From positions 1 through 34,282 of IMG/VR virus record IMGVR_UViG_3300032212_000104: 34,282 bases of DNA; one strand, written 5' to 3'. A model generated the notes under the pieces. The model saw nothing but the letters and a program-made list of their open reading frames with translations, did no database searches and was not told where the DNA came from. Both the position numbers and the translations under genes were made by a program. Of this stretch, positions 1 through 34,282 are shown piece by piece (within the stretch, counting starts at the first letter, position 1; the number at the start of each line of letters is the position of its first letter). This DNA comes from a virus. Its lineage: Duplodnaviria > Caudoviricetes.

Positions 1-22
1 TCTTTAAAACTAAACTAATTTA
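1..22. other. Putative left telomere half-site
   Basis: TTAAAACTAAACTAATT (4-20) resembles the reverse complement of the right end (TTAAAATTAAAACTAATT); AT-rich non-coding terminus. Confidence 0.45.
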
Positions 23-236
23 TTTTATTCAACAAAAGCTAAGTAAACTTACGCATCAAGATAAATTAATTACAAAACAGCAATACAAGCCTCCTATGAC
101 CTATTCTAATTTAATCTTATTTTAAGCTACTTTATGCAGTTAGGCACGTTTTAAAGATATCTTAAGAAAAACCATTATTTAAGCATAACAATTAAGTTTC
201 AAACCGATATTATCTTAAAAAAGTGTATTTTAATTG

Positions 237-282
237 AATTTAATAATACTTAATTCATTTAAAGTTAATTTAATAATACTTA
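237..282. repeat. 16-bp direct repeat AATTTAATAATACTTA x2 upstream of the par operon; possible centromere/operator
   Basis: Identical copies at 237-252 and 267-282, starts 30 bp apart. Confidence 0.5.
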
Positions 283-331
283 CTGTACACTTTTTATATA
301 AATTCAAAACAGAAAGAAAAGAGGTGTAAGT

Positions 332-559
332 ATGGTACGAGACACAGCGAGTAATTTACTTTCAGAATTATTATTTATGGATGGGCTACACGAGGACGCT
401 TTGATCGTTGACGCTCTAAACCAAAACCGATATGATCTCATTATCAAGTTAGCTCATATTGCAGAAGAACACGACAAGGCCAACCACTTAAGCACAGACT
501 TAAAGCAACGTAGAGATAAGATCTCAGCCCAACTAAGCACACATCAAAAGGAAAATTAA
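332..559 (+). CDS. Hypothetical protein, first gene of the partition operon
   Basis: GAGGTG RBS upstream; stop directly precedes the parA start. Confidence 0.7.
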   Translation: MVRDTASNLLSELLFMDGLHEDALIVDALNQNRYDLIIKLAHIAEEHDKANHLSTDLKQRRDKISAQLSTHQKEN

Positions 560-560
560 A

Positions 561-1172
561 ATGTCAGTAATTAGCGTAATATCACAAAAGGGAGGCGAGG
601 GGAAAACCCCTATTAGCTTCAACCTAGCGAACGAATTAGGTAGCAGAATCTTAACTAATGATAATGATATATTAGAGCTTATTTTTGCCCCTAATGCAAA
701 GATTATGCCTTTAAAAGAGATAGCGAGTTATGATCTAAAGAACTCTGGCAAAGACTTTGTTATCGATTTCGGGGGGTTCGTAGAGGCTGAGACAATCAGC
801 ATCATTAAAGACTCTGATCTCGTAATCGTTCCAACACGTAACAACCCGTCAAGCATTAAGCGAGGCTATCAGACGATACAGGAGCTACAGAAGCACAATA
901 AGAATATTATCGTAGTTGTAACAATGACAAAGAAAGACCGAGATTTCGGGCAAGTGCAAAAGCACTTTAAAGATTTAGAGATCAAAGCATTTTATGAATT
1001 AAAGCTTACAGAGCTGTTCGGTTACTCTATGGAAGTGGGGCAAACGATAAACGAGTACGTTAAGGACTCTCCGTTAATGCTTCACCGATACGGACGTCGT
1101 GAGGGGCAGATAAACGACTCTATTTTAGAACAATGGGACAATCTAATGACATATATCAAGGGGGCTTTATAA
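561..1172 (+). CDS. parA: ParA-family partition ATPase (short, type Ib)
   Basis: Deviant Walker A SQKGGEGKT, FVIDFGG Walker B, SDLVIVPT motif; no N-terminal HTH. Confidence 0.9.
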   Translation: MSVISVISQKGGEGKTPISFNLANELGSRILTNDNDILELIFAPNAKIMPLKEIASYDLKNSGKDFVIDFGGFVEAETISIIKDSDLVIVPTRNNPSSIKRGYQTIQELQKHNKNIIVVVTMTKKDRDFGQVQKHFKDLEIKAFYELKLTELFGYSMEVGQTINEYVKDSPLMLHRYGRREGQINDSILEQWDNLMTYIKGAL

Positions 1173-1173
1173 G

Positions 1174-1461
1174 ATGGAAGTAGAACAAGATAACTTTATG
1201 AGTGACGTACTAAGCGACGTCAAGAAAAAAGGGGATAGTAGCTACGAGACAGCCGATAACAAACCAAAGGCAGGGCGTAAGCGTTTACCGCAAGAGGAAA
1301 AGAAACAACGCCGAACGGTATTTTTTACGCCTGAGCAATTAGATCTATTAAATCAGGCCTGCGAGTATGAAGCCCTAGAAGATAATACTTTTATCATCAG
1401 AGCCACGATCAAAGAAGCTCGACGGGTTATCGCTGAACACACACCAAAAGAAGAAAACTAA
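1174..1461 (+). CDS. Putative ribbon-helix-helix centromere-binding partner of ParA
   Basis: Immediately after parA; flexible N-terminus, then RRTVFFTPEQLDLLNQAC strand-helix pattern. Confidence 0.6.
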   Translation: MEVEQDNFMSDVLSDVKKKGDSSYETADNKPKAGRKRLPQEEKKQRRTVFFTPEQLDLLNQACEYEALEDNTFIIRATIKEARRVIAEHTPKEEN

Positions 1462-1462
1462 A

Positions 1463-2174: not shown

Positions 2175-2708
2175 ATGTTCACACTAGAAACAGGCTTAGA
2201 CAACAGCTATTTACCCACAGCTCAGACGGAACACTCCGCAGGGTTTGACGTTAAAAGCAGAGTCGATATCACCATCAAACAGGGCGAGACGTCTCTTGTC
2301 CCTACAGGCGTCTTTATAGATCAAGACTTTTTTAGAGATATGTTTGAAGTCGAGGACTTTTTTAGAGATGATGCAGAAGCGATCGCAGATCATAGAGGGC
2401 TTTTTAAATGGAGAGAGTGCGAGAGCTTTTTAAGCTCTCATTACATAGCGTTTCATCTTAGATCGTCTCTAGGTGTAAAAGGGCTTATCCTCGCTAATGG
2501 CGTCGGGGTGATCGACCTAGATTATAAGGGCGAGGTCTGCGGGATCATTCACAACACAAAAAGCGAACCATTCCAAATAGATAAAGGCGATCGGATCGGA
2601 CAGCTGTTAATCATGGAGCATAAAGGGGCGTTTCTACCTGACGCCTTTAGAAAAAAATCGAAAAGGGCGGGCGGGTTTGGTAGCACCGATCAAGAGGCCA
2701 AAGTTTAA
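2175..2708 (+). CDS. dut: Trimeric dUTPase with insertion
   Basis: Motifs AGFD, RSS, GVIDLDYKGE, RIGQL, RAGGFGST. Confidence 0.95.
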   Translation: MFTLETGLDNSYLPTAQTEHSAGFDVKSRVDITIKQGETSLVPTGVFIDQDFFRDMFEVEDFFRDDAEAIADHRGLFKWRECESFLSSHYIAFHLRSSLGVKGLILANGVGVIDLDYKGEVCGIIHNTKSEPFQIDKGDRIGQLLIMEHKGAFLPDAFRKKSKRAGGFGSTDQEAKV

Positions 2709-2723
2709 CAAATCTAACAAATA

Positions 2724-2774
2724 ATGAAAATAATTTTCATTTTTCTTGACTTTATGAAAATAATTAGATAAGAT
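2724..2774 (+). promoter_or_regulatory. Promoter/operator cassette copy 1
   Basis: Palindrome ATGAAAATAATTTTCAT 2724-2740; TTGACT 2746-2751, 17 nt, TAAGAT 2769-2774. Confidence 0.85.
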
Positions 2775-2802
2775 TTAACTATCTAAAAACAAAGGTCAAG
2801 AA

Positions 2803-3198
2803 ATGAAAAGTTTAAGTGATTACACACAACAGGCACAAACGAAAGCGTTTGACGATAACGGGGCGTTTTTTTCGTTCGGTCAAAAACAATTTGACGAGAA
2901 AAAACAAGAGGGCGTTAAATATGCTCACTTAGGATCTGGACTTATCTGTCCTAGCGAAAACGCTCAAACTCTTATCGATCAACTCGATACTATCCACACC
3001 ACAGCCATTAAGCAAGATATCGCGGAAAACGGCGTTAAAAACATCATTCACAGAGAGTTAGCAAACCACGAGACGCAAATCACGCTTAATTTTACAGACA
3101 CGATCGAGGCTTTAGAAGATTACGGGATCACCGCAGAGCAGATTAAGGCAGAGTGGAAAGAGTATTACGACGAGTGTGTCGCTAACGATTGGTTTTAG
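2803..3198 (+). CDS. Conserved-looking acidic phage hypothetical protein
   Basis: AAGG RBS; AFFSFGQKQF and ELANHE motifs seen in uncharacterised phage proteins. Confidence 0.8.
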   Translation: MKSLSDYTQQAQTKAFDDNGAFFSFGQKQFDEKKQEGVKYAHLGSGLICPSENAQTLIDQLDTIHTTAIKQDIAENGVKNIIHRELANHETQITLNFTDTIEALEDYGITAEQIKAEWKEYYDECVANDWF

Positions 3199-3231
3199 GC
3201 TTCGGCCTAAACGAGCCTATAAGGAAAAAAT

Positions 3232-3528
3232 ATGACTTATACAGAATTTATCGATCATTTAGAGTGGTGTATAGTTGAAATAGATCATTGGAGCAAATTA
3301 TCAAAACGTGTCAAACAAGGCGAGACGATAGAAGATAACAAGCCCGAATATATCGAGCAACAGCTTAACCATTGGGAGGCGGAGCAAGACGTCACAGCCA
3401 AGATCGCAAACATTAACCCGCTTAACGTGCTAAACATACTCGCCTATGATCCAGAGAACCGAAAACGGCTTTTTATGAAAGCGAAACGACTTAAAAACAA
3501 AAGATTACTAGATATTAACAAATTATGA
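3232..3528 (+). CDS. Hypothetical protein
   Basis: AAGGA RBS; preceded by TAGGC-TTCG-GCCTA hairpin. Confidence 0.75.
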   Translation: MTYTEFIDHLEWCIVEIDHWSKLSKRVKQGETIEDNKPEYIEQQLNHWEAEQDVTAKIANINPLNVLNILAYDPENRKRLFMKAKRLKNKRLLDINKL

Positions 3529-3575
3529 AAATTATTTTCATTTCTCTTGACATTATGAAAATAATTAGATAAACT
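3525..3575 (+). promoter_or_regulatory. Promoter/operator cassette copy 2
   Basis: ATGAAAATTATTTTCAT 3525-3541; TTGACA 3547-3552, 17 nt, TAAACT 3570-3575. Confidence 0.85.
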
Positions 3576-3604
3576 TACTACATATAAAAAGAAAAGGACT
3601 TAAG

Positions 3605-3814
3605 ATGATCGAGGACATTAACTTTACAAATAAGCAAAAAGAGCAAGTTGAGATAATGCTATCTCCTTTAAACGATGCGTTTACTATTTACGTTAATGAT
3701 GATTGTGTCACTTTAGACGGTCAGTCCTTTTACTTTAAATCATGGGGTGAGTTTATAGTGTTTCAAAGTGGCATAAAGTATGTATTAAGACAAAAAACAG
3801 ACCTAGTAAAATAA
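3605..3814 (+). CDS. Small hypothetical protein
   Basis: AAGGA RBS downstream of promoter copy 2. Confidence 0.75.
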   Translation: MIEDINFTNKQKEQVEIMLSPLNDAFTIYVNDDCVTLDGQSFYFKSWGEFIVFQSGIKYVLRQKTDLVK

Positions 3815-3844
3815 AGGGCTTAAGCCCCGCCATTAAAAGGAAAA

Positions 3845-4081
3845 ATGATGAAAACCTTAAATGTATATTTCAAGCTAGAACTCGCAAAAATGGGCTGTGA
3901 CTTTTGGGACTACGACCAGAGCGAGACATGGACGCACTGTATAGCGATAGACAAAAACGACAAGCACTATAAAACAGCGATAGATCTCTTTTGGGAAACA
4001 GTAAAAAAAGCAGATGCTAGAGAGGTATTACAAACAACAATCAAACATGAGGACGGAGATTTCACCGTCTTAAGTTTTTAA
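3845..4081 (+). CDS. Small hypothetical protein
   Basis: AAGGA RBS within a repeated 22-bp start cassette. Confidence 0.75.
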   Translation: MMKTLNVYFKLELAKMGCDFWDYDQSETWTHCIAIDKNDKHYKTAIDLFWETVKKADAREVLQTTIKHEDGDFTVLSF

Positions 4082-4083
4082 AA

Positions 4084-4392
4084 ATGCCTAAAGTAAAAAG
4101 CAATATCTATAGAGTTTTAAAACCCTGCTCTAACTGCCCGTTTTTAGATAACGGTAAAGAGATACACTTAAACTCTGGACGGGTTGACGATATCAAAGAG
4201 ACGCTTTTAAGCTCAGATCGTGAAAGCTTTAATTGTCACAAGACCGTCTATGATCTTGACACCCAGATGAACAGCACCGACAAACAAGAACTAAAAATGT
4301 GTGCGGGGGCTTATCAGTTTTTAAAAGATCAAAAGCGACCTAACCTACAAATGAAATTTGCTCTCTCTATGGGTATCGAAAAAGAATTATGA
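4084..4392 (+). CDS. Cys-rich putative metal-binding phage protein
   Basis: KPCSNCPF...FNCHKT...MCAGA motif pattern. Confidence 0.75.
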   Translation: MPKVKSNIYRVLKPCSNCPFLDNGKEIHLNSGRVDDIKETLLSSDRESFNCHKTVYDLDTQMNSTDKQELKMCAGAYQFLKDQKRPNLQMKFALSMGIEKEL

Positions 4393-4439
4393 AATTTATT
4401 TTCATTTTTCTTGACTTTATGAAAATAATTAGATAAAAT
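4389..4439 (+). promoter_or_regulatory. Promoter/operator cassette copy 3
   Basis: ATGAAATTTATTTTCAT 4389-4405; TTGACT 4411-4416, 17 nt, TAAAAT 4434-4439. Confidence 0.85.
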
Positions 4440-4469
4440 TAGTGTATATAAAAAGAAAAGGATCTCAAA

Positions 4470-4721
4470 ATGGCTTCATTCATAATTACAAAAGATAAGA
4501 TCAACGACGGCGAAAGCAACGGGTATAAAAGCGGGAACGAGGATTATATTAACGCGGGTAAATGTAAACATAAATTCAGACTCCTAGACGACGACGGAGA
4601 AATTTATTTTTATGGGTGTAGTGGGAACTCAAGCAGTTTCGAGCCTTTGGATCTTTTTGGATCAGCTTTCGGCTGTACAGAAATACAATACCGTGAAAAC
4701 GGCAAATATGAGACGCTTTAG
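4470..4721 (+). CDS. Small acidic phage hypothetical protein
   Basis: AAGGA RBS; FRLLDDDGEIYFYG motif. Confidence 0.8.
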   Translation: MASFIITKDKINDGESNGYKSGNEDYINAGKCKHKFRLLDDDGEIYFYGCSGNSSSFEPLDLFGSAFGCTEIQYRENGKYETL

Positions 4722-4742
4722 CCTCAGCCATTAAAAGGAAAA

Positions 4743-4991
4743 ATGATGTTTACTTTAATACATAGATGCAGAAAAGGCATGACAAACGATGAACTTTTAG
4801 AGATGTATATAGACACTCTACAGGAAAGTATAGAAGTTTATAGAGATAATTTAAAAGAGCTAAGACTCGCTCAAAGCGTTAACGACCTATACGGCGAAGG
4901 CATGGCAAAAAGTTTAATTATCCGTTATCGGGTTTTCATAAAAGCTATTATTATCGAGATCAGAAAAATACAAAAGGGAAACAATGCCTAA
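4743..4991 (+). CDS. Small helical hypothetical protein
   Basis: Same 22-bp RBS/start cassette as 3845. Confidence 0.75.
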   Translation: MMFTLIHRCRKGMTNDELLEMYIDTLQESIEVYRDNLKELRLAQSVNDLYGEGMAKSLIIRYRVFIKAIIIEIRKIQKGNNA

Positions 4992-5250
4992 GCTAAAAGC
5001 AACCGATAAAAATATCGCTGAGGCTTACGACCTCACGCCTCAATCGCTAAGAAATTGGAAAAAATCAGACGACGAGAAATTAGTAAGACGCTATAACGCT
5101 CTTAAGGCCTCTTTCGAGCGTGACAATGGTCTACTATTAGATTTCACTTTTAAAGACGCCTCGACGAGTATAGTTAGCATTAACGACGTAAAAGAGCAGA
5201 TTGAGGCGAACGCAGACACGATCGAGACAATTTCGATAAGAGAGGGTTAA
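4984..5250 (+). CDS. Small HTH DNA-binding protein, candidate repressor of the cassette promoters
   Basis: TDKNIAEAYDLTPQSLRNWKK helix-turn-helix pattern. Confidence 0.7.
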   Translation: MPKLKATDKNIAEAYDLTPQSLRNWKKSDDEKLVRRYNALKASFERDNGLLLDFTFKDASTSIVSINDVKEQIEANADTIETISIREG

Positions 5251-5252
5251 TT

Positions 5253-5477
5253 ATGAAAAATGAAAAATGTAACATTATACTTGGAGAAATAACACTATGC
5301 GAAGAGTTATATCATTTAGTTACTAACCTTGATACCAAAATTGAAAAAGTTAATATGGTTCACATGAAAGATATAAATTACGACTTCATCGGTGCAATTA
5401 CTTTTAGATATGGTAGAAAAAAGAATGATATTATTGCTTTATCATTTTGCCCTATATGTGGTGGAAAATTAAGATGA
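5253..5477 (+). CDS. Small Cys-containing protein
   Basis: N-terminal Cys residues and C-terminal FCPICGGKL zinc-knuckle motif. Confidence 0.7.
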   Translation: MKNEKCNIILGEITLCEELYHLVTNLDTKIEKVNMVHMKDINYDFIGAITFRYGRKKNDIIALSFCPICGGKLR

Positions 5478-5511: not shown

Positions 5512-6852
5512 ATGGAAACTCTTAACACCAAACAAGAGCTTAACAACTCTTTCGAGTTCTTTGTTAATTACATACATAAACGCTTAACAGGCGAGGCGTT
5601 TACGTGGCACGATCATAACAAGGCCATTGTTAAAGATCTGCTTTCTGTTTACAAATTAGAGCTTATGTTTTTAATTATCAACATTCCCCCACGTCTAGGA
5701 AAGTCTACGCTGATCCTTTACTTTATCGCGTGGACTATGTTTAAAAACAAGCTGACATATAATAACTATTACACTTATTCTGATCTACTCGTCGCCAGAG
5801 CTTACAAGATCGTAAGCGATATCTTTGATATCCCAGACGTAGAAGCGGGGGCAGATCTGGCCTATAAAAGAAAAAAAGACGACTTTAGCAACGACAAAAA
5901 CGGTGGGCTTTTTGCTATGACGACGCTAGGGCAGGTAACAGGTTTCGGGGCAGGCCGTAAGGACAAGATAGACGAGTTTAACGGCTGTATCGTGATAGAT
6001 GATCCTCTAAAGGCAAACGATAGTTTTTTACGCCAAAACAACGCTAACAAAGCGATAAAAAGTGCGGTACTTACCCGTAAGAATAACTCTAAAGTTCCGA
6101 TCGTTCTTATCATGCAACGCTTAAGCCTTGAAGATACGACGGCCTTTATTAAGAAGATCTACGGAAAGCTTTTCGAGAACGGCAAGGCGAAACACCTTGT
6201 TATCCCTGTACTGAAAAACGGCGTTTCTATCTCTGAGAAAGAGTACCCGATCGAGTTACTAGAGATCGAGAGAGAGAACGATCCCGCGACCTTTTACGCT
6301 CAGCTTATGCAAGCACCGCAAAATATAGAGGGGGGGATTTTTACCGAAAAGATCTTTGATTACAGCTCACCAGATCCAAGCAAACAGGGATCAATCGCGA
6401 CAATCCATTTTAATAAAGAAGATACGACTCAGCCTGTCGTCTTTTTAGCCTTTAAAAAAGAGGGTAAAAACCTTTTGATCTTAGACTATGCAGAGGACGA
6501 GCCGAACCCTGAGACGTTCTTTAATGATCTTAAGATCTTCTGTACTAAAAACGGCGTGAAAGTTCTACATATACCCCAGACCTTAGACGCTGAGGTTTTA
6601 ACTGAAAGCCTGCGACCGATCAAAACAAAAGCGATCACCGAAAAAGAGGATATTTCACTAAATGCCTTTTATGCTCTGGCTCAGCTAAGAGATAATAAAA
6701 TCGTCATTCAATACGACGAGGATCAAGAGGCCTTTAAAAAAGAGTTAAAAGCTTTTCCAAAGGCAAACAGGGACTTTTCAACAAAGGCGATCGTTAACGC
6801 GATTAATATTGCTTTAGGTGATACTAGAGGAAAAATAAGCAGGGCTATATAA
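5512..6852 (+). CDS. terL: Terminase large subunit; ATPase motifs intact, nuclease domain apparently degenerate
   Basis: IINIPPRLGKST Walker A, GQVTGFGAG, CIVIDDPLK Walker B, IMQRL coupling motif, AQLMQAP..EGGIF linker. Confidence 0.9.
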   Translation: METLNTKQELNNSFEFFVNYIHKRLTGEAFTWHDHNKAIVKDLLSVYKLELMFLIINIPPRLGKSTLILYFIAWTMFKNKLTYNNYYTYSDLLVARAYKIVSDIFDIPDVEAGADLAYKRKKDDFSNDKNGGLFAMTTLGQVTGFGAGRKDKIDEFNGCIVIDDPLKANDSFLRQNNANKAIKSAVLTRKNNSKVPIVLIMQRLSLEDTTAFIKKIYGKLFENGKAKHLVIPVLKNGVSISEKEYPIELLEIERENDPATFYAQLMQAPQNIEGGIFTEKIFDYSSPDPSKQGSIATIHFNKEDTTQPVVFLAFKKEGKNLLILDYAEDEPNPETFFNDLKIFCTKNGVKVLHIPQTLDAEVLTESLRPIKTKAITEKEDISLNAFYALAQLRDNKIVIQYDEDQEAFKKELKAFPKANRDFSTKAIVNAINIALGDTRGKISRAI

Positions 6853-7261: not shown

Positions 7262-7708
7262 ATGAAAAAAGAAACCGATCCATACAAAGAAGTAAAATTA
7301 TCAGAGGTATTAAAAGACGGATATCTAGTAGCCATCGAGGGCGACAACTCTTTATATGACGAAGATTTAGACAAATGGCTAAAAGAGAACGTAAAAAACT
7401 ACATTCTATTAAATAACATATACGACAATCCAGAAAAGCTTTTTCAACTCAAAGACATTAAAATAGACGCGTTCATATTTCAAACGACAGGCTTAAACCC
7501 AAAACTAAAAAGCCTAATTTCTTTATATACCACTGAAATAGGCAATTATCCGAAGCATTTCATTACAGTGTTTAGAGATAGTGAGGATTTTTTTTGGGAA
7601 GTCTTTAGAGAGCTAAAAGAGTATGAAGTCTATCAATATAACGAAGTAGATAAAAATGATTTACACATGACTAGGCAAGATCATTCTTGCAAAGAAAAAG
7701 AGGCTTAA
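7262..7708 (+). CDS. Hypothetical protein
   Basis: AAGG RBS; last gene of the + strand block; stop overlaps the endolysin stop. Confidence 0.75.
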   Translation: MKKETDPYKEVKLSEVLKDGYLVAIEGDNSLYDEDLDKWLKENVKNYILLNNIYDNPEKLFQLKDIKIDAFIFQTTGLNPKLKSLISLYTTEIGNYPKHFITVFRDSEDFFWEVFRELKEYEVYQYNEVDKNDLHMTRQDHSCKEKEA

Positions 7709-8214
7709 GCCCCCTCTCTAATCACTCTCGCGTAATTCTTACAGCGTCCCGTCGTCTGCTTATAAAGATCGCTATGCTCTGTTTTTGTGATCCCGTTTTT
7801 ATAAAGGATCTCATCAGAAGCCCTCTGAAAGTCTCCCTCCTCTAAAGCTTTAAGCATTGAGGGGAAACCGAGCAGGCCGTCGACGCCAAGCTGATACGAC
7901 ATTTCGATAACAGTTAGATATCTCATATTAGAAAGATTTTTGATAAAAGGCTTACGCTTGATAAGAGCTTTTATATTGCTCTCTACGCGTTTTCTAACGA
8001 TTATCATACTTTCGTCCTCAGTAATCCTTAAAACGTCCATATCGGGCGATAAACCACGTTTAACGCGGTCGTTTGCGATAAGCTCTAGCTCATCAGGCAA
8101 AAGAGGCATTTTTAAGCCGTGTCCGATCGTCTCAAAGCCTAAAGTATCTATATACACTACAGGGCGAAACCCCTCTCTTTTTGCGATCCCGCCGAACAAA
8201 TTATAACTAGACAT
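7705..8214 (-). CDS. Endolysin, T4-lysozyme-like (GH24)
   Basis: REGFRPVVYIDTLGFETIGHG with E-x8-D-x5-T catalytic triad; MSYQLGVDGLLGFPSML. Confidence 0.9.
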   Translation of the reverse strand: MSSYNLFGGIAKREGFRPVVYIDTLGFETIGHGLKMPLLPDELELIANDRVKRGLSPDMDVLRITEDESMIIVRKRVESNIKALIKRKPFIKNLSNMRYLTVIEMSYQLGVDGLLGFPSMLKALEEGDFQRASDEILYKNGITKTEHSDLYKQTTGRCKNYARVIREGA

Positions 8215-8665
8215 TATCGGCCTTTAAAAAACGAGTTAGATAAACCCTTACAGACTTAAAAAGCAACGGGAAAACGTCGAACTCTTCGACCTCTATTTTA
8301 GTAAACATAGTATAAAGATTTGCGACAATACTATAAGCCTCACTCATTAAGAAAGCGTTTAAAACGATAAGTAAAAGGACTGTAGCATCGAACGATAAGC
8401 CCTGTGCGGTTATAGCTAAAACGAAAACAGTACAAAGCACTAAAAGCTTATACTCTAAACCGATATTAAATCGCTTTGAAGTCGGCTTAATTCCAAGTCT
8501 AAAAGACTTCCCGACACCTGTTACGATATCAATAACGAACAACACACTTAAAACCGTCAAGAACGAGATACTTAAATTTAAGTGGATAGACAACCATGTA
8601 AAAATTGCCGAGCCTGTAAAGGCCAAGGGTTTAGATACTGTCGCGGTTACTGTTTCTTTAATCAT
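8207..8665 (-). CDS. Holin
   Basis: Several TM segments, DIVTG and EAYSIVANL motifs; adjacent to endolysin. Confidence 0.8.
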   Translation of the reverse strand: MIKETVTATVSKPLAFTGSAIFTWLSIHLNLSISFLTVLSVLFVIDIVTGVGKSFRLGIKPTSKRFNIGLEYKLLVLCTVFVLAITAQGLSFDATVLLLIVLNAFLMSEAYSIVANLYTMFTKIEVEEFDVFPLLFKSVRVYLTRFLKADNV

Positions 8666-9044
8666 CTTTTTTCCTTACTTTTGAGTTATTATCAGAGATT
8701 AAAACCTGATAGTCATAGATCACGCCCTTAAGTTTTTCGATACAGTTAATCACGTTTTCAACCTTAAAACGCTCACCGATATAAAGCTCGTCAAAGATCA
8801 TTTTAGACATAGGAACAGGCAGAAATACAAAAGTATTACCCGCCATATCTAAAGCGTCGATCGTGACGTTTGCGTCAGATCCTAAAACGACTGTTTGCCC
8901 AAACTTAACAGGCGTCATATCACCACAAACGGGCATATCAAAAAGGGGCATTTTCGCCCGCGTCTCAAAATAGATCTTTTCACTACAGGCCGTTAAAACA
9001 AGAAGTGAAAAAAGTAAAAAGCTAGTGAGTTTTATTGTTTTCAA
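8658..9044 (-). CDS. Lipoprotein, putative o-spanin
   Basis: Signal peptide with lipobox LTAC; in lysis cassette. Confidence 0.65.
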   Translation of the reverse strand: MKTIKLTSFLLFSLLVLTACSEKIYFETRAKMPLFDMPVCGDMTPVKFGQTVVLGSDANVTIDALDMAGNTFVFLPVPMSKMIFDELYIGERFKVENVINCIEKLKGVIYDYQVLISDNNSKVRKKDD

Positions 9045-24541: not shown

Positions 24542-25871
24542 TTTCAGCTCCCTTCTCTTTATCTCTAGCCTCTAAAAAAGAGAATCTTTTATCATCTCTG
24601 ATCGTGGCCTCTCTGATCTCATCTTTTGAAAAGACCTCATTTGTAATATAGATCGCGTCGGTTTCTGCCTGAGTCTTTTTTCTGTCTGTTGTTTCTGCTA
24701 AGGTTTCCTGTTCTAATGAGAGCCATTCTGTTCCACACTCAAAAGGGTTTCCGAAAGTAGAAAAGGCTATGATCTCATCTAAGGTGTTAAGCTTAGGCTC
24801 TAAGCTTGTCTGTTCTGCTGAGATACGATCGTTAAAGTTTCTCGTGTCGCTTGCTCCTGTGGCGTTCATGCCGTCAGGGGAACGTCCCCAGAGACGCGTC
24901 GCGGGGATATCTGCCGAGCCTGCGACGTGAATCTGAGCTGATACATCGATATTATGCAGATCTTTAAAGTCGTTTGATTTTTTTAAAAAGTCGTCTTTAG
25001 CATCTAAGACAACGGCGTTAAGGTAAGATTTCATCTGATCGACGATCTTTAGGCGTGAGATAATGGCCTCATCTTCACCGTTGATCGCCTGCTCCGTAAG
25101 TTCCTCTAGTTTGTAGACGTTGACGTTTGCCTCGTCAAGCATATTTATAATAGCGTGGATTGTTTTATCTGATTTAATGATCGGTTCGATCGATCGCTGT
25201 ACTTTTGAGCCACCCCAGAAGTTATACTCACGTTTTTTATGCTCTGTGGCTTTAAGGCCTTTAAAGATAAGTAATCGTGATTTGTGGATCGTTAAGGTTT
25301 CGCCCAGACCTTGAACTCTAAAAAGCTCAGGCTCACCCAGACCATAATTAACAGGGAAAATATGACGCGGATCAAAAACTCTAAGGCGGAGAGATCCTTT
25401 TTTTATATTATGCTTTTTAAGGGGCTTATCCTGACTCTGACCGTCGTTAACGATCATGTGAATAGCTGAGCCTCCGAAAAGATCCGCCCACGTTATAGCC
25501 TCTTTAAAATGCTCTTTAACGTCAAGCTCTTTTTGTGCCTTTAAAAAGAGATCTAAACGCTCTTTTGTTTCGCTTGATACAATGTTACGCCATTTACGCG
25601 TAATCTCTGAGGCGGGGATATCTGCGATCTTACCGACAAGCCAGTTTTCAGAGTAAAGATCATCAGCTAAAGCGGGGTTATGATTTAGGTTAAGGTGAAA
25701 GCGGTAAAAAGAGGTATTTGTCAGAGAGTCTTTAAGACCTCCGATCCCTTTCATTACATTTGAGAAGCCATCAAAAGCGGGAATAGTCGGAGGTGTAGCG
25801 GGCGGGGTAGCTTTATCTAAAGCTAAAGCACGTCGTTTGCCTAGTTTGTTTCCGTCTTTTTTGCGTTTCAA
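24534..25871 (-). CDS. Portal protein (DUF1073-like)
   Basis: LYSENWL, LFGGSAI, IHKSRL, WGGS, ADIPATRLWGRSPDGMNATGASD. Confidence 0.92.
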   Translation of the reverse strand: MKRKKDGNKLGKRRALALDKATPPATPPTIPAFDGFSNVMKGIGGLKDSLTNTSFYRFHLNLNHNPALADDLYSENWLVGKIADIPASEITRKWRNIVSSETKERLDLFLKAQKELDVKEHFKEAITWADLFGGSAIHMIVNDGQSQDKPLKKHNIKKGSLRLRVFDPRHIFPVNYGLGEPELFRVQGLGETLTIHKSRLLIFKGLKATEHKKREYNFWGGSKVQRSIEPIIKSDKTIHAIINMLDEANVNVYKLEELTEQAINGEDEAIISRLKIVDQMKSYLNAVVLDAKDDFLKKSNDFKDLHNIDVSAQIHVAGSADIPATRLWGRSPDGMNATGASDTRNFNDRISAEQTSLEPKLNTLDEIIAFSTFGNPFECGTEWLSLEQETLAETTDRKKTQAETDAIYITNEVFSKDEIREATIRDDKRFSFLEARDKEKGAESA

Positions 25872-26213: not shown

Positions 26214-26431
26214 ACTTTACCCTTTATCAAAACACACACCTTATTTATATCAAAATTACGTCTTATACTGCTCTTATGCTTGATAATCAAACAGATCTTA
26301 TTTGGCATATCTTTAAACGGCTTTCTCACGCCTAAGACCTCCCAGAAAACAGCCTGTTTACTATTTGAGATCTTTACTCTATCCCCTGCGGTTATCCGAT
26401 CTTCTGCGGGTATTGTTATCGCTTTTGTCAT
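26210..26431 (-). CDS. Small basic hypothetical protein
   Basis: ATGA-type overlaps with both neighbours. Confidence 0.65.
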   Translation of the reverse strand: MTKAITIPAEDRITAGDRVKISNSKQAVFWEVLGVRKPFKDMPNKICLIIKHKSSIRRNFDINKVCVLIKGKV

Positions 26432-28611
26432 ATCGGGAACACCTGTTGATCGTGGCGATCCCCGTAAAGCTGTTCGTTCATATCGTCGATAGCTCTCTGG
26501 ATATCTTCGTTTGTTCGTGTCTCTTTTTCTTTGTCAGGGTTTAAAAAAGTGATATCAACCTCGTCAGGGGAAAAGAGGCCTTTAATGCAGTACGACCAAA
26601 CATTAGTCGTGCCAATATGCTTAACTTGTTTAGCTTTTCGTTTATTTTGCTCTTTAGAATCGGGGTTATATTTAAGCATATCACGCGTTAATAATTCAGT
26701 TATAACCTCTTTAGGTGGGAACTTCTGATCCTGACACCACTTGTTAAAAACAGGGACGCTTATCTCAACAAGATCATTTTCTATATTAATACGTCCGAAT
26801 ATTTTAGGGTTTCGACCTACAAAGACAACACCACCCGAAGCGTTTAAGTGAACATAAGACTCTCGATCACTTGAAAGATAAGAGACAAATTCATCTTTGA
26901 ACTTAGAAAAAATATCTTTTGCATTGTTAAACTCTGAGGCTGATTTTTTGGCTAACTCTCTAAGATATTTAAACTGTCTTGTATAGATAGTCTCATCTAT
27001 AAAATTCATCTCTTTTAAAATTCTCAGAGCTGTTGTCATTAGTCCGAAGCGGGTATTAATAGTTTCGCCGACTTCTACAATATCAGAAAAAAGCTCGACG
27101 CTTGAATCAAAGAGGTCTAAAACTCGATCTCTATTTTTTTCTAAATAGTCCAAAAAGTCAACGCCTAAAATGCCATGTGCTGAGTGCATAAGTCGGCCTA
27201 CTTTTCTTTTATCTACACCGTCCCAGATACCACGTGCGGGAACGTCTAAAACCCTACGAACTGAACCAATCGGATCATTCCCTCTTTTACTTTGTGCAAC
27301 TACATCGAGCCAAGACTTTTCACCTGTAGAGATCATCACGCCTTTAAAAGAAAGGATCTCTCTTGTCACCATGTCGCCCTCTTCATCTATCCTATTACGG
27401 CCTTTTCCTTTTCTGTCGGCAAACATATACGAAACGCTTATAGCCTTATCCACGTTATCGGCGTCCTCTATATCATCTACGAGTGTCACAACGCCGTAAT
27501 TTTCAGACAAATAAGACTCAACCCTCGCGAGGGTAGTATTCCACTTCTGGCCTGAGTCGAAAGGCTCACAATAAAAACTAAGGCCTGCTTTACCAGCAAA
27601 ACTCTTTCCTAATCCCGTACGCCCGCCTAAATGGATAATAAAGTTTAGATCAGTAGGGACAAGATCAAAAAGGCTTGCAGTAAATGCTCCCAGAGCTGTA
27701 ATAAAAACTTTTCCTTTTCCCATTTCTTCTAAAAGCTCTAACTGTGTCGAACGCTCACCTTTGATCGTGTAGTTTTTTTCTAAAGCTTTATTTAACCAGA
27801 TAGCCCCCTGTTCACGCTGAGGAATATAGAAAGTGTCATCAACCCAACCAGTCCTTTTTACGCCCTTTTGATCGAGGATTAAGTCAGGGTTATTAGCTAG
27901 ATAATCAGCAAGGTAAGTCATAGTTTTACCAATTCTAGGTTTATCTAAATAAACTTTATTATTTCCGAACACTTTAGCGAAACGATCAGCCTTTACAAAA
28001 GTTGACATCGGGTGTAAGATCTCTCTTATCCCTGTTCGTGTTTTCATAGCTAATCTAAGATAGGTTTTCGCCTCTCCCTCGTGGACAATCTCGATCTGAG
28101 CTTTAGGGACAAACATAGCACAAAGTTTATCTGTTCCCTTGTCGTCGTCATATCCTAACATACCAGACTCATAGATATATTTACCCTGTATAACAGGGGG
28201 AACGTCAAGGTCAAAATGTCTTTGCAAGATCTCTGGCAAACCTGAATAACGCTCTTGTTTTATATCGCTGATACGTTTCTCTTTATGAGATTTAAAAGCA
28301 CGTTTCACTATGGCTATTTTAAGCTTATTTTCTGAGATAAAAGCGTCTAACTCTAGCTCATTTTCAAACTCGCTTTGCTCTTTGTTAAGCATATCATCAA
28401 AGAAATTTATATAATCAGAGGGCGAAAGAGTGGCGGGCTTAGAGGCCTCTTTTATTTCGGCTTTTTTTGCATCAGTAAAAGCCCTATAAGCTTCACGAAG
28501 CCCAGAAACAGGGATCTTTTTAGCCTTTGAAAGAAGCTTAAAAAAGCGTTTTTCTCGTTCTTTTGATACAGTAGTAGCCTCTAAGGGCATAAAATAAGTT
28601 ACTAAATTCAC
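26428..28611 (-). CDS. DUF927-type replicative helicase/ATPase
   Basis: RTGWVDDTFY, Walker A GRTGLGKS, WNTT, LVDD Walker B, GKGR, ISTGE, GSVRRVLD, HGILG. Confidence 0.85.
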   Translation of the reverse strand: MNLVTYFMPLEATTVSKEREKRFFKLLSKAKKIPVSGLREAYRAFTDAKKAEIKEASKPATLSPSDYINFFDDMLNKEQSEFENELELDAFISENKLKIAIVKRAFKSHKEKRISDIKQERYSGLPEILQRHFDLDVPPVIQGKYIYESGMLGYDDDKGTDKLCAMFVPKAQIEIVHEGEAKTYLRLAMKTRTGIREILHPMSTFVKADRFAKVFGNNKVYLDKPRIGKTMTYLADYLANNPDLILDQKGVKRTGWVDDTFYIPQREQGAIWLNKALEKNYTIKGERSTQLELLEEMGKGKVFITALGAFTASLFDLVPTDLNFIIHLGGRTGLGKSFAGKAGLSFYCEPFDSGQKWNTTLARVESYLSENYGVVTLVDDIEDADNVDKAISVSYMFADRKGKGRNRIDEEGDMVTREILSFKGVMISTGEKSWLDVVAQSKRGNDPIGSVRRVLDVPARGIWDGVDKRKVGRLMHSAHGILGVDFLDYLEKNRDRVLDLFDSSVELFSDIVEVGETINTRFGLMTTALRILKEMNFIDETIYTRQFKYLRELAKKSASEFNNAKDIFSKFKDEFVSYLSSDRESYVHLNASGGVVFVGRNPKIFGRINIENDLVEISVPVFNKWCQDQKFPPKEVITELLTRDMLKYNPDSKEQNKRKAKQVKHIGTTNVWSYCIKGLFSPDEVDITFLNPDKEKETRTNEDIQRAIDDMNEQLYGDRHDQQVFPI

Positions 28612-29159: not shown

Positions 29160-30272
29160 TTAAGCCTCTAATTTAAAAAGAGTATTAAAATCTAAGTCAC
29201 TCGCTACTAAACTTTTTTGATCTGCCATGTAATCCGCAAAATCTAAACCACTATCAAAAGAGAAAAGATTTTTAAAGTCCTTTTCAAGCATCTTTTTAAG
29301 TCTCTCATATCCGCCCCGTCCTTTCGTAAATTTTTCGCCGTCATATCCGCCGTCGCCGTCAAACGCTCCGATCATCTGTTTCGTTTTACTTAGCTCTTTA
29401 ACGTAGTCGATAAGCTCGTCGCTGATCCCAGATGATACGCTCTCGATCGAGATATAAGGGACACCAAACACAAACGCGACCAGAGCGTTTTTAAGCCCCT
29501 CGCCTATAAAAAAGAAGTTATGACGAGAGATAAGTATTTTCATTTCAAAAGAGAGGGGAAAAAGAAAGTCCTCGCCTCTGTTGTCAAGGGTTTTTTCTGA
29601 TCCTTGATAGAGGTACTTAGAGATAACTTTCCCCTCTTTTGGATCTATGGCTCGATACTTTGAGATATCAGCGACCTTACGCTTATCGTCTCGCATGATG
29701 ATCGCGGGGCATTTAAAAAAATCGTCATAAGCTAACAGCTCAGAGGTGATATAGTTTAGACGCTTTAACGCGGGTTTATCGACTCTAAAAGTGCTATGCT
29801 CTAAGAGCTTTTCAAAGACAGGAGAAACCGCGATTATATCTGAGTTATCGATAGGTATAAAGATCGTAAAGTCTTTATTGTTTGCTAGGAGTTTGTTAGC
29901 TTTAAAAGCTAGATCTTTTTTGATCTTTACGGCGTCTTTAGCGGGCTTTTCTTTTTTTGGGAGGGGGTTATGTCGTTGCGGGCTGTTTTCCTCACGTTCA
30001 CCGCCTGCGTAGGCTAAGGCCTTTTCTTTGGCCTCCATTTTACTAACGCCGTGGTATAGTTCTATAAAGTCAAAGATATCACCACCTTTACCACAGCCGA
30101 AACAATGGCATATCTGTTTAGTAGGTGAAACGCTAAAGCTTGCTGAGTCCTCAGAGTGAAAAGGACAAGGGGCGACAAAGTTTGCTCCTTTTTTTACTAG
30201 GGGAATAAAGTCTGATATATAGTCAACTATATCGATCGCGTCTTTAATCTCGCTCATTGATTTTCTAGCCAT
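29160..30272 (-). CDS. DnaG-like primase (CHC2 zinc finger + TOPRIM)
   Basis: CPFHSEDSASF...CHCFGCGKGGD; IGEGLKNAL; AFDGD; DFADY. Confidence 0.88.
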   Translation of the reverse strand: MARKSMSEIKDAIDIVDYISDFIPLVKKGANFVAPCPFHSEDSASFSVSPTKQICHCFGCGKGGDIFDFIELYHGVSKMEAKEKALAYAGGEREENSPQRHNPLPKKEKPAKDAVKIKKDLAFKANKLLANNKDFTIFIPIDNSDIIAVSPVFEKLLEHSTFRVDKPALKRLNYITSELLAYDDFFKCPAIIMRDDKRKVADISKYRAIDPKEGKVISKYLYQGSEKTLDNRGEDFLFPLSFEMKILISRHNFFFIGEGLKNALVAFVFGVPYISIESVSSGISDELIDYVKELSKTKQMIGAFDGDGGYDGEKFTKGRGGYERLKKMLEKDFKNLFSFDSGLDFADYMADQKSLVASDLDFNTLFKLEA

Positions 30273-30620: not shown

Positions 30621-30821
30621 TTAAGAGAAAGTAGTTATTTTTGTTTGTTCGGTGATCCATTTCTGAATATTTTTCCACGCATCGAACGGAATACCATAAA
30701 GTTTTTCAAATTCTTGTCGATTATCTGCATTAGGCTTTCTACGCCCACACATGATCGATCTGATCGAATCTTTCTTATACTCCTTTGAAACCAATAACTC
30801 TTTAATACTTAAATATGTCAT
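30621..30821 (-). CDS. Cro-like HTH protein (start uncertain, probably 30821 or 30836)
   Basis: SIRSIMCGRRKP...YGIPFDAW; divergent from repressor; the longer ORF start runs through operator DNA. Confidence 0.7.
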   Translation of the reverse strand: MTYLSIKELLVSKEYKKDSIRSIMCGRRKPNADNRQEFEKLYGIPFDAWKNIQKWITEQTKITTFS

Positions 30822-31002
30822 GTACAAATTGTACATATAAGAATATAAATAAAATCTTAAATTAAAGAAAAGTTTAAAACTTGTGTACTTAATGTACATT
30901 TATTTCACTTTTTCACACTTAATATATTTTAAATAACTTTTTTCATCTTAAAAAAATACTCTATATTAATAATTATTTTTTAATGTATGTACATTATGTA
31001 CA
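30821..31002. promoter_or_regulatory. Immunity region with three 15-bp operators TGTACW-N3-TGTACA
   Basis: TGTACAAATTGTACA 30821-30835, TGTACTTAATGTACA 30884-30898, TGTACATTATGTACA 30988-31002. Confidence 0.8.
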
Positions 31003-31037
31003 CATTATTTATTTTTCTGTATACTTACGCTAAATGA

Positions 31038-31751
31038 GTGACGGAAAGGTACAAAGTGAACACTTTTAGGCAGGAAGTTGCTGACAGACTAAACAACCTC
31101 ATAAAATCAACACCCAATCAATCAACTAAAACGATACATGAATCACTAGCCTACATGGGGTACGAGGTAAGCGAGGAATCTATAGGCAAGTATAGACGAA
31201 ATGAGAGGAGTATACCTATAGAGTTTCTTTATCTTACCTCCTTGATACTGCTTAAGCCTGTTAGCTACTTCCTAGAGGGAGAGGAAGGGGACAATAAAGA
31301 TCTAGTTCTATCTTCTACACTTACACCTATAAAGATGATTAACCCCCGTCGCATTAATGGGCTAGACAAGCTAGAAAAAAACACCTTTGAGTCAAAATAT
31401 ATAGACAAACTGCTTTTAAAAGAAGATGATAGAGACAAGCCTCTTTTTGGACTTATCGCTCACAAAAGAATGGGATCGCTTATCAAGTCGGGAGATCTTC
31501 TCTTGTTTCAGTTAATAAAGTACGACTACAAAGGGTTAGCAGTCGAAGAACCAGAAGATGATTACTATATTTATGCTACGCCGTACGGAGTACAAATAAA
31601 ATACACTAGGTTTTTAATAGATGGGACAATAAACATTTATGATAAAAAGCCTAAGACTATAACAGAAGAAGTTATAGCCGAAAACTACGAAAAAGGAGGG
31701 GGAAACTTTAAGATCATTGGTAAAATTAAATATAAATTTTCAGAATTTTAA
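31038..31751 (+). CDS. CI-like repressor (XRE HTH + degenerate S24-like domain); start may be GTG at 31056
   Basis: VSEESIGKYRRNERSIPIEFL...VSYFLEG HTH; C-terminal LIKSGDLLLF, QIKY, FKIIGKI. Confidence 0.8.
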   Translation: MTERYKVNTFRQEVADRLNNLIKSTPNQSTKTIHESLAYMGYEVSEESIGKYRRNERSIPIEFLYLTSLILLKPVSYFLEGEEGDNKDLVLSSTLTPIKMINPRRINGLDKLEKNTFESKYIDKLLLKEDDRDKPLFGLIAHKRMGSLIKSGDLLLFQLIKYDYKGLAVEEPEDDYYIYATPYGVQIKYTRFLIDGTINIYDKKPKTITEEVIAENYEKGGGNFKIIGKIKYKFSEF

Positions 31752-31807
31752 ACGCTTAACCCTCTATTTTTTTTCTTCACAGCTCAGAAAACCCCTTTTT
31801 TATTCAA

Positions 31808-32179
31808 ATAACCACCAAGTAACCAACACAGTAACCACGCCGTAACCAAAAAAACGTCCACCAAAAAAGCAACAAAACCCCCTTAAAATCGATATCTAAA
31901 AGCCTATTTAGGATCAAGTAACCAAAGTAACCACTTTTTTGCATAGGGGGTGGGGGTATTGTAAATATTTTATTTTTCAAAAAAAAATAAATTTTACCCT
32001 CATCTCAAAATTATTTTTTTATTTTTTTTATTTTTTTTGTCTTTCTATATATACCCTATATATTTATGGTTACTTTGGTTACTTACTATATATATACTCT
32101 TTTATATCCCTATATTTAGGGCTTTATCTCAGTAACCATTTTATGAAATTGTCTGGTTACTCGTGGTTACTCTGGTTAC
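31808..32179. repeat. GTAACCA/TGGTTAC heptamer array around an AT-rich core; putative replication origin
   Basis: 11 exact copies plus one variant; perfect 18-bp inverted repeat 31916-31933 / 32067-32084. Confidence 0.75.
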
Positions 32180-32244
32180 TGTACTGTTTCGGTGGGTTCT
32201 TTTGCCTATAAAAAGGGATCATTTTTTATTTTCAACTAAAAGCG

Positions 32245-32253
32245 TGTTATAAT
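32245..32253 (+). promoter_or_regulatory. Extended -10 promoter
   Basis: TGTTATAAT upstream of AAGGTGG RBS. Confidence 0.6.
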
Positions 32254-32272
32254 GTTTTAAAAAGGTGGTGAA

Positions 32273-32632
32273 ATGAAACGAGTTATTTTATTTATAATGA
32301 TGGTAGGCTTAGCAAACGGGGCAACACCTCCGAACTGCTTAACTCACATAGAGGATAAAGAGCTTATGCAGAGATACGGGGCGACGTACTTAAGTAAAGT
32401 CTTTGACTATAGATATGATCTCTGTATGGCTGACAAGCTAAACGACGCGATGGGGGTATTATCTTACGATAAGGCTAAAACGTGCGGTAAGAGGCTTAAG
32501 AGAGCCGATAAGATGATAAGTAAGGTCAAGACTCACATTATAGAAGATGATCCCGCTCTGCTCAGGAGTGACTTAAAGCAGGCGGTAAGTTATTTAAAGA
32601 TGTATAAGAAGTGTGTAGCGAGTAAGATCTAG
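32273..32632 (+). CDS. Exported helical protein with four Cys
   Basis: Signal peptide MKRVILFIMMVGLANG/A; own promoter and RBS. Confidence 0.75.
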   Translation: MKRVILFIMMVGLANGATPPNCLTHIEDKELMQRYGATYLSKVFDYRYDLCMADKLNDAMGVLSYDKAKTCGKRLKRADKMISKVKTHIIEDDPALLRSDLKQAVSYLKMYKKCVASKI

Positions 32633-32633
32633 T

Positions 32634-33866
32634 TTACATTAGAGCTTGTTTCGCTTTTTTTAGATATCCGTGGATATCGAAATACTCTGATATAATATTT
32701 CTTTTATAGTAGTGCTTTAAGGCTTCATAGTCTTTATCTTCATGCCCTAATATTTCTTGCATATATGTATCTTGACGCTTTTTATTAGCGTCTCTAGGGT
32801 TATTCTGATTATAGATAAACTCGCAAGTCATAGCATAAAGGCCTCTAAAGCTTGTCGTTTTCCCATCTACTAATAAATCACTATCTATTTTGTTCCATTT
32901 TAGCAAGTTGTGAGCGTGTTTAGCTCTATTGTTATCCTCTCTTAATGTTTTCGGGATTGACGATCTTAAAGTCTCGATAACTTTTAATGTCTCGTCAGCC
33001 GTTAAAAAAAGAGTGGGGATCACGATCGATTTTACATTACTCGTCTCTCTCTTTTTCCCGATCCCTATTACTTTGATTTTGTAGTCGTTTACTTTTTCAA
33101 AATCTGATAAGACAATAAGCTCTTTCAGTCTTCGACCGCAGGCCAAAGAAACCATTGTCACAAGTTTAGTAAACACCTCAGCTTTGTTTTTTTTAGGAAT
33201 CTCTTGACCTATTAGTTTTTTATTTAGTTCTATAAAATGATGTATCTTGCCTATAGCGATAGGTTTATCGCTTGTTTTCATTCTGCTTGACTTTAATACT
33301 CTCACCCCCTCGTTAAGGTAATCATGTACTCGCTTAGGAACAGTGAAGAAAGAGAGAGCATAGTCTCTTTTATTATCTTCTATCTCTGACTCTTTAATTT
33401 TATTTCTAATCTTTTTAAGATGATCCAAAACTGTATTAAACTCGTAAAAGTGGGTAAAGAAATAAACGTACTCGTTAAAAATATAAGGTATAGCCTCTTT
33501 CTTTTTTGTCTGTATGTCTTTTACTATTTGTATGGCTATATCTTCGATCGTATCCGCGTCATACATAGCTAAATGTTCAATATGCTGTTTTCTGGGTGTA
33601 GCCTTAAGTTGATCCTCTAGCTTTCTTTCCCTATCTCTTAGCTCGTTTATCTTTCGCATATACAAATCATTTAAGAGCGTAGAGGCAAAATCTGCTTTTA
33701 AGGTGTTAACGTATGTTATGGCGGTATCTAAGGAACACCAAAATATATCTTTTGACTGTTCAAAAGATATATATTCGTCTGTTTCTTTTATGTAGTTCTT
33801 AATTCTAGTATTCCATCTAGCTTTATTATCATACTGCATCAGGTAAGAAGTGAGATTCATTTTCAT
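32634..33866 (-). CDS. Protelomerase / telomere resolvase (TelN/TelK/ResT family)
   Basis: Ordered catalytic motifs LACGRRLKEL (R), GIGKKR (K), IPTL, SFRGLYA (R), EILGHED (H), LKHY (Y); terminal position. Confidence 0.9.
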   Translation of the reverse strand: MKMNLTSYLMQYDNKARWNTRIKNYIKETDEYISFEQSKDIFWCSLDTAITYVNTLKADFASTLLNDLYMRKINELRDRERKLEDQLKATPRKQHIEHLAMYDADTIEDIAIQIVKDIQTKKKEAIPYIFNEYVYFFTHFYEFNTVLDHLKKIRNKIKESEIEDNKRDYALSFFTVPKRVHDYLNEGVRVLKSSRMKTSDKPIAIGKIHHFIELNKKLIGQEIPKKNKAEVFTKLVTMVSLACGRRLKELIVLSDFEKVNDYKIKVIGIGKKRETSNVKSIVIPTLFLTADETLKVIETLRSSIPKTLREDNNRAKHAHNLLKWNKIDSDLLVDGKTTSFRGLYAMTCEFIYNQNNPRDANKKRQDTYMQEILGHEDKDYEALKHYYKRNIISEYFDIHGYLKKAKQALM

Positions 33867-34261
33867 AAGCGTCCTTTTAATACAATTATTTTACAGTAAA
33901 TTACATTAAAAACACTTTAAATAAATTAACTTAATTTAAAATGTATTAAATTAATTTAAAGTTAATTTAATTGTAGTTTTTTAAATATAACTTAAATTAA
34001 GATTGAAAGCAAAATACCTATAAACTTAAGCGAGATTATGCTCATATTCACTGATAAAATCTTAAATATACTATCATAGAAATACTTAAAAAACACTTAA
34101 TAAAAAAATGCTAATAGAGGCCTCCTGTGGCCTATTTTTAACAACTTACACCACGTAAACCTAAATCATAACTATACTTAAATTAAAATTAAAATTATTA
34201 TCTAATTTAATTTTTAAGGTAGCATATTAGCTTAAGAATATCTGAGGTTAACCTTAATTCA

Positions 34262-34282
34262 TTTAATTAGTTTTAATTTTAA
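34262..34282. other. Putative right telomere half-site
   Basis: AATTAGTTTTAATTTTAA is an imperfect inverted copy of the left terminus; lies upstream of the protelomerase gene. Confidence 0.45.

Follow-up and report, generated by a model that had tools for sequence, protein, structure and literature searches.

A contractile-tailed phage lineage with a protelomerase, a ParA pair and a separate primase and helicase, probably from Campylobacterota

In this study, we analysed the virus record IMGVR_UViG_3300032212_000104, an apparently whole phage genome of 34,282 bp; the entire record is referred to as the window. The element appears to behave like a telomere phage and lies outside the N15 and Hapunavirus groups. 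The genome is that of a phage with a contractile tail and codes for a protelomerase, a ParA pair, a primase and a helicase; it is likely to persist as a hairpin-ended linear plasmid, probably in a Campylobacterota host. An earlier note on this DNA had proposed a separately assembled lineage of telomere phage-plasmids. Gene comparisons with the N15 and VP882 groups and an approximately unbiased (AU) test of the protelomerase tree support this proposal, and the hairpin ends themselves we infer. The chemistry and mechanism of telomere resolution are known; the lineage, the replicon and the likely host phylum are new in our searches.

Protelomerase and layout of the element

By every sequence- and structure-based test, the predicted product of the gene at 32634-33866 is a telomere resolvase. 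It matched PF16684 (E 5.7e-14) with 52.5 bits against a cut-off of 27, and its sole sequence match in the PDB was ResT. When its AlphaFold model was searched with Foldseek, all eight matches at E<=0.001 were TelA, ResT or TelK, and lambda integrase ranked ninth. Residues R246, K271, R341, H375 and Y386, which follow the catalytic residue list in PMC3558466, occupy the same alignment columns as the catalytic residues of TelN/TelK and ResT. All five are invariant among 10 sequences that share 20-39% identity. The His-to-Tyr spacing is 11, as in ResT and in TelA (H394/Y405 in the same source), and 9 in six known phage enzymes. No integrase HxxR motif was found in the protein. These profile and structure searches bear out the protelomerase call of the earlier note.

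The catalytic domains were then compared in a tree of 35 rows. The protelomerases of the lineage formed a clade with 100/99 support, and a joint clade with the N15/VP882 enzymes (TelN/TelK/VP882) was rejected by the AU test under LG+G4 without a mixture model (p-AU 0.0006); two other trees split alike. The tested group had been chosen once a first tree was available, which weighs against this result; 20 of the 96 rows of that first tree had been dropped because the domain could not be cut by motif. The position of ResT was unstable (long branch). The closest cultured protelomerases were those of Vibrio phages, with 26-29% identity over the catalytic domain. The G002-type enzyme (L015:167-1696) has an insertion of ~90 aa within the catalytic domain.

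Directly seen in the window are its genes, their end-to-end arrangement, the inverted arms at the termini and a cluster of repeats. The features that concern replication and maintenance are as follows.

1-331: left terminal arm (parA side), a degenerate inverted repeat of the right arm, probably without its outermost bases
332-559: 75-aa open reading frame (ORF) ahead of ParA
561-1172 (+): short ParA ATPase of 203 aa (PHROG 164, E 6.8e-14; Pfam)
1174-1461 (+): small, likely ribbon-helix-helix (RHH) partner of ParA (weak Pfam and Atlas matches; conserved behind parA in G001, G002 and L017)
26428-28611 (-): DUF927/Cch-like helicase (Pfam, PDB)
29160-30272 (-): CHC2-TOPRIM primase (CHC2 finger, TOPRIM motifs, fold)
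30621-30899 (-) and 31038-31751 (+): likely cro/cI switch, divergent, with TGTACA repeats between
31819-32179: likely replication origin, with 11 copies of GTAACCA in two opposed arms that flank an A/T-rich core
32634-33866 (-): protelomerase (telomere resolvase) of 410 aa (Pfam, PDB, fold, catalytic residues)
33867-34282: right terminal arm; the candidate tel centre is a 10-bp palindrome at 34245-34254 (low confidence)

The protelomerase gene lies at one end and parA at the other, both directed inward, and no integrase or recombinase family was recognised among the 58 window ORFs scanned against Pfam and PHROGs. The ORF listing and these scans agree with the layout described earlier. In two full-length relatives, G001 (33,773 bp) and G002 (32,332 bp), the protelomerase also comes first and ParA last, the two being divergent around the tel region with no integrase; 28 of the 58 window genes were matched in G001 and 25 in G002. 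The context had also been called AT-rich. At 38.9% GC the window is only moderately so, and its relatives have 32-33%.

Eighteen other protelomerase clusters showed 36-40% identity to the window enzyme. Among nine non-self protelomerase loci, the gene start was present in six, always within 510 bp of a contig end, and three contigs began inside the gene. All four ParA loci lay within 510 bp of an end. The longest contig among those of the 18 non-self protelomerase clusters and the 43 best ParA clusters was 35,005 bp, and eight non-self ParA contigs spanned 31.7-35.0 kb. The end positions of the two genes and the lack of any longer contig point to a complete, non-integrated unit of 32-35 kb.

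It is extremely unlikely that the element is an integrating prophage, or part of a larger phage, in which the enzyme acts as an integrase. Protelomerases do share the tyrosine-recombinase fold, as the rank of lambda integrase illustrates, and the CheckV completeness of G001 and G002 was only 37-38%, which also counts against a complete unit. However, no host DNA was found at any end examined, neither end gene occurred on a contig longer than 35,005 bp, and the partition pair and an internal origin are present.

Terminal arms and the form of the DNA

The arms of the window aligned as inverted repeats over ~300 bp with a score of 91.5, compared with 51.6 +/- 8.3 for shuffled sequences, and none of 200 shuffles scored as high. 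An alignment in direct orientation scored 78, which was reached by 6 of 200 shuffles. G001 has an exact terminal inverted repeat of 99 bp. In G002 the two arms share 95% identity across 116 bp, and the arm on the parA side is 96% identical to the end of L008 over 224 bp. The arms of these two relatives are thus near-perfect, and their contigs stop short of the centre. In run X1, a metagenome from a microbial mat, the Logan contigs end at positions 10 and 34282, where neither a joint nor loose ends were seen. AT dropout was rejected as the cause of the contig ends, since internal 100-bp stretches of 9-14% GC were assembled through in the window.

The tel site was sought by joining the end of the window to its start. 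The five best of 180 symmetry centres fell at 34248-34252, on the perfect 10-bp palindrome 34245-34254, which we tentatively propose as the telRL centre. Two other candidates were rejected. An 18-nt match between the outermost ends was considered as a pair of tel half-sites; its score was reached by 0.7% of 39,882 random pairs of arms, and in the whole-arm alignment the ends are 64 nt out of register. An imperfect repeat near 34181-34216 was considered as a hairpin apex; its outer bases match neither a fold-back nor the left arm. A dyad motif, CCTA-N3/4-TAGGGCTTT, was observed within 280 bp of the ends in G002, L008, L017, L089 and L090, and the same dyad occurs in the window at 32108-32125, inside the likely origin.

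Several observations weigh against hairpin ends. The contigs of the window, G001 and G002 show no fold-back at either end, and the window arms contain no long perfect palindrome like the tel sites of N15 or phiHAP-1. No end-to-start joint was found in the X1 contigs, and X1 is the one run in which the sequence occurs and possibly the source of the window, so that its contig ends are not independent. Long inverted repeats of the G001/G002 type break assemblies of circles too. The symmetry centre lies 33 nt inside the right end; were this the true centre, the contig would run across an uncut tel site, an arrangement equally consistent with a circular or virion form. The AlphaFold model of the protelomerase has a mean predicted local distance difference test (pLDDT) score of 70, and its template modelling (TM) scores to TelA are low (~0.33-0.41).

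The element might instead be a circular phage-plasmid in which the protelomerase-family enzyme is a dimer resolvase or inactive, and whose contigs open at an AT-rich inverted repeat for assembly reasons. The missing fold-back, the zero-gap join that puts the symmetry centre on the palindrome, and the exact repeats of the relatives, which would break any assembly, all fit a circle. We nevertheless consider a circle unlikely. All five catalytic residues are invariant, and the HxxR motif is missing. The divergence of the window arms is too great for them to disrupt an assembly, yet two assemblies end at this place even though internal stretches richer in AT were bridged. Moreover, a 68-bp fold-back was found on another protelomerase contig of the same phylum, as described below.

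It is also conceivable, though very unlikely, that the hairpin-ended linear DNA itself is packaged and that, unlike in N15, a joined tel site never exists. All three full-length contigs open at the tel region, and several searches found no contig or examined locus spanning the tel site. No terS or cos site could be identified, and terL stands apart from the head genes. However, cell-fraction metagenomes would presumably look alike for an ordinary telomere phage, and a joined form is favoured by the 33 nt that may have been read through at the right end.

A linear plasmid with a joined virion form would work as follows, by inference from N15, TelA and ResT. Injected DNA would circularise, and a protelomerase dimer would cleave the tel site, which lies between parA and the protelomerase gene, and close the ends into two hairpins. 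Replication would likely begin internally at the GTAACCA cluster, using the phage primase and helicase and a host polymerase. The replicated telomeres would be resolved by the protelomerase, and the copies segregated by ParA and its small partner. A likely cI/cro switch would govern the operon with the primase, helicase and virion genes, and upon induction DNA whose tel site is still intact would be packaged by the terminase. It is likely that the modules came together independently of their counterparts in the N15 and VP882 groups.

Replication module and comparison with known telomere phages

The TOPRIM motifs of the primase, GEG and DGD, are invariant in 22 sequences, and its best fold match was DnaG. 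The only PDB sequence match of the helicase was 5dgk ('active helicase'), and a below-cut-off match to the SCCmec Cch1 model was seen. Pfam, the motifs and the DnaG fold therefore uphold the separate CHC2-TOPRIM primase and DUF927-type helicase named earlier. As a distinguishing set, the pair holds in its split from RepA and fails as a fixed combination across the lineage, since G002 and L028 carry a DUF5906 helicase.

All 11 copies of GTAACCA in the window fall within 31819-32179; 2.45 are expected window-wide, and none of 100 shuffles contained at least 11. Five copies lie on one strand to the left of the A/T-rich core, and five of the six to its right lie on the other strand. G001, L004, L006 and L007 show the same arrangement with GTTACCA or GTTCCCA repeats, just downstream of the protelomerase gene. 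The repeats mark 31819-32179 as the likely replication origin, a feature that the earlier note does not mention, and such opposed iterons around an AT-rich core presumably resemble the P4 origin. The minimum of the cumulative GC skew is at 32137, and gene strand switches could cause such a minimum. The repeat arrangement was not found in G002 or L009, the latter having another repeat. As the DUF927 helicase occurs in G001 and L004, and the DUF5906 helicase in G002, origin and helicase appear to swap together in this small number of cases.

The region at 30621-31751 is likely a cro/cI switch. Five of the seven TGTACA copies lie in 30800-31030, and the gene at 31038-31751 has the position of the HTH_3+S24 repressor of G001 and G002, with a weak pairwise match (23% over 145 aa, E 0.004).

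For the partition genes, ParA is 48-52% identical in G001 and G002. A type Ib ParA with an RHH partner had been claimed. The ParA part stands (PHROG 164), and the RHH identity of 1174-1461 is only weakly supported: the match to TacA1 (E 8.5e-4) is below the cut-off, and RHH look-alikes were found at 0.92 with 149-160 shared features.

The window was compared by tblastn (E<=1e-3) with N15, PY54, phiKO2 (50,000 of 51,601 bp), phiHAP-1, VP882 and HY01. Of its 58 genes, one was matched in each of N15, PY54, phiKO2 and HY01, and two in each of phiHAP-1 and VP882. The matched gene was always the protelomerase, joined by ParA in the latter two. The annotation of each of the six phages includes a single large replicase gene or another gene as large.

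N15, PY54 and phiKO2 resemble the window in having the tel site between the partition and protelomerase genes, no integrase and a cI/cro-type switch. They differ from it in their SopAB partition system (SopA 387 aa), a RepA of ~1,325 aa transcribed on the repressor side, and non-contractile lambdoid tails. Their protelomerases (628-640 aa) have the H+9 tyrosine and are the only proteins to match the window, at 22-26% identity. No window match at the above threshold was found to the single multifunctional RepA, or to SopA/SopB and the lambdoid virion genes.

Hapunavirus (VP882, phiHAP-1, HMP1; 38-39 kb) is similar in layout: its protelomerase gene diverges from that of a short ParA, which has a small partner, and its tail is contractile. 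In VP882, ParA has 212 aa and its partner 87 aa, and the contractile tail is P2-like; phiHAP-1 is much the same. Contrary to what had been supposed, the ParA pair and contractile tail therefore do not set the window apart from all telomere phages. The ParA proteins of the window and Hapunavirus are weakly similar (E 2e-5 to 1e-4). Hapunavirus encodes one RepA of 1,239-1,347 aa, whereas the window has a separate primase and helicase. It also has a P2-like tail, a long perfect palindrome and gammaproteobacterial hosts, in contrast to the DUF3383-type tail and degenerate arms of the window. Its head, P2-like tail and RepA genes had no match in the window, and the two matching genes encode ParA and the protelomerase.

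Borrelia ResT and Agrobacterium TelA gave the best sequence and fold matches. Like the window enzyme, they are compact, carry the H+11 tyrosine and lack a C-terminal extension; they serve host replicons, whereas the window enzyme serves a phage. Klebsiella phage JD001 and its relatives have a DUF1073-type portal module and share portal, protease, capsid, cement and sheath families with the window. Their portals are only 31-33% identical, and they are not among the 13 phage records matched by the protelomerase search. The Sulfurimonas prophage SNW-1 (PMC11290706) is temperate, of similar size and from the likely host group. Unlike the window it encodes an integrase, and the consulted part of that paper does not mention a plasmid, telomere or partition system. 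The window is distinct in its replicon, which is split into primase and helicase and lies in the operon on the cro side, in its virion module, in a terminase set apart from the head genes, in a compact enzyme of the ResT type and in its host.

Virion genes, likely host and protelomerase plasmids of Campylobacterota

The remaining features of the window are listed below.

2175-2708 (+): dUTPase (Pfam/PHROGs)
2720-5477 (+): region of small genes, variable and missing from G001 and G002, with three promoter/operator-like repeats of 78 nt
5512-6852 (+): terminase large subunit (PHROG 38, E 3e-34), detached from and opposite to the head operon
7705-9321 (-): lysis genes, namely endolysin, holin and two likely spanin-type genes (spanins by position only)
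9715-20589 (-): contractile tail, namely fibre, baseplate, tape measure, tube, DUF3383 sheath and terminator; syntenic in G001 and G002
20540-25871 (-): head and neck, namely portal (PF06381), DUF2213 protease, cement, major capsid (PF09950) and DUF4054

The Pfam and PHROGs scans recognised a virion and lysis gene set in the window and no terminase small subunit among its ORFs. The position of the large subunit is common to G001, G002, L017 and L023. The major capsid family PF09950 is, we assume, DUF2184. With this capsid, the DUF3383 sheath, the baseplate and the portal found, the DUF2184/DUF3383-type contractile virion described earlier was confirmed. The best cultured portal matches were 31-33% identical, portal relatives occurred in 8 of 401 Campylobacterota genomes at <=38% identity, and a single-protein scan with the capsid gave no match.

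The three 78-nt repeats (2720-4462) are spaced 801 and 864 bp apart. Each holds a 17-bp palindrome overlapping a promoter-like site and heads a small-gene cassette, and similar stretches occur in several Sulfurimonas genomes. At the place of this region, G001 (L014:11035-13514) carries two adenine and one cytosine DNA methyltransferase genes. A diversity-generating retroelement lies behind the tail-fibre gene in G001 (L014:5748-8853) and G002 (L016:5583-8685). It consists of bAvd, a reverse transcriptase and a 117-nt repeat pair, whose mismatches fall at adenines in 7/8 and 9/9 cases. Retroelement-like genes were also seen in L017 and L023, and they are absent from the window.

The host probably belongs to Campylobacterota, as the earlier note had guessed, and likely to the sulfur-oxidising members of the phylum. 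About 14 kb of a G002-like phage (the parA end and tail region, on two contigs, 83-99% identical) was found within a Sulfurimonas metagenome-assembled genome (MAG). ParA matched 252 plasmid records, 244 of which were from Campylobacter, Helicobacter or Aliarcobacter, and its profile matched 49 of 401 Campylobacterota genomes. Among named relatives, the ParA of an Epsilonproteobacteria MAG was 53% identical, and Arcobacter peruensis had the best named full-length primase relative outside the lineage.

Some results speak against this assignment. MAG binning is weak host evidence, the ParA plasmid matches are only ~30% identical, and proteins of the G001 type are labelled as from a Thiotrichales MAG. 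The lineage protelomerase profile matched none of the 401 Campylobacterota genomes, and an alignment search with the window protelomerase found nothing in genome contigs. A host check by CRISPR (clustered regularly interspaced short palindromic repeats) spacers, suggested earlier, gave no spacer: the left half of the window had weak matches in 59 of 194 Sulfurimonas genomes, and none of the 14 loci checked out of 15 lay in an array.

Other protelomerases were found in the phylum. PF16684 scored above its cut-off in 2 of 401 Campylobacterota genomes, and a broader profile matched 2 of 191 genomes of the Sulfurimonas family. L066 (G359:C8:1-10916) is an apparently whole linear plasmid of 10,916 bp with 173-bp terminal inverted repeats and a protelomerase at one end, which had no match in PLSDB. 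Its other genes encode a likely helicase of 500 aa, a VirD4-like coupling protein and StbB. The contig of L090 (G662:C54:1-140) opens with a perfect fold-back of 68 bp around a loop of 3 nt; genes for a protelomerase and a coupling protein follow. This fold-back is direct assembly evidence of a hairpin telomere on a plasmid-type element of the Sulfurimonas family, in the likely host group. The L090 protelomerase is 43% identical to that of L066. In L089 (G588:C81) a protelomerase lies beside a ParA-like gene, and in L067 (G284:C17) beside a likely helicase and two GTPase-like genes. The L066/L090 enzymes are not the closest kin of the phage protelomerase. Direct descent from them is not claimed here, as they grouped weakly with it in a quick tree and not in careful trees.

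The literature searched, whose coverage mostly excluded subscription papers, held no report of hairpin replicons in Campylobacterota. The main text of PMC11531552, as far as consulted, contains neither 'telomer' nor 'linear', and its supplements gave no match. The consulted part of PMC9170930 (2022) counts 10 reported linear plasmid phages, all but one from Gammaproteobacteria.

We lean slightly towards an independent origin of telomere phages in Campylobacterota. A myovirus would have taken the protelomerase, the ParA pair and the iteron-primase-helicase replicon from the phylum's own unreported pool of hairpin plasmids. The outcome would be a lineage of 32-35 kb, widespread among sulfur-oxidising chemolithotrophs, in which helicase-origin pairs can be swapped and most of the examined relatives carry a tail-fibre diversity-generating retroelement. 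The lineage suggests that the telomere-phage lifestyle can run on another replicon and virion, in a phylum without reported hairpin replicons in our literature search. It also provides new protelomerases of compact size, a candidate origin and, possibly, a vector backbone for bacteria of the Sulfurimonas type.

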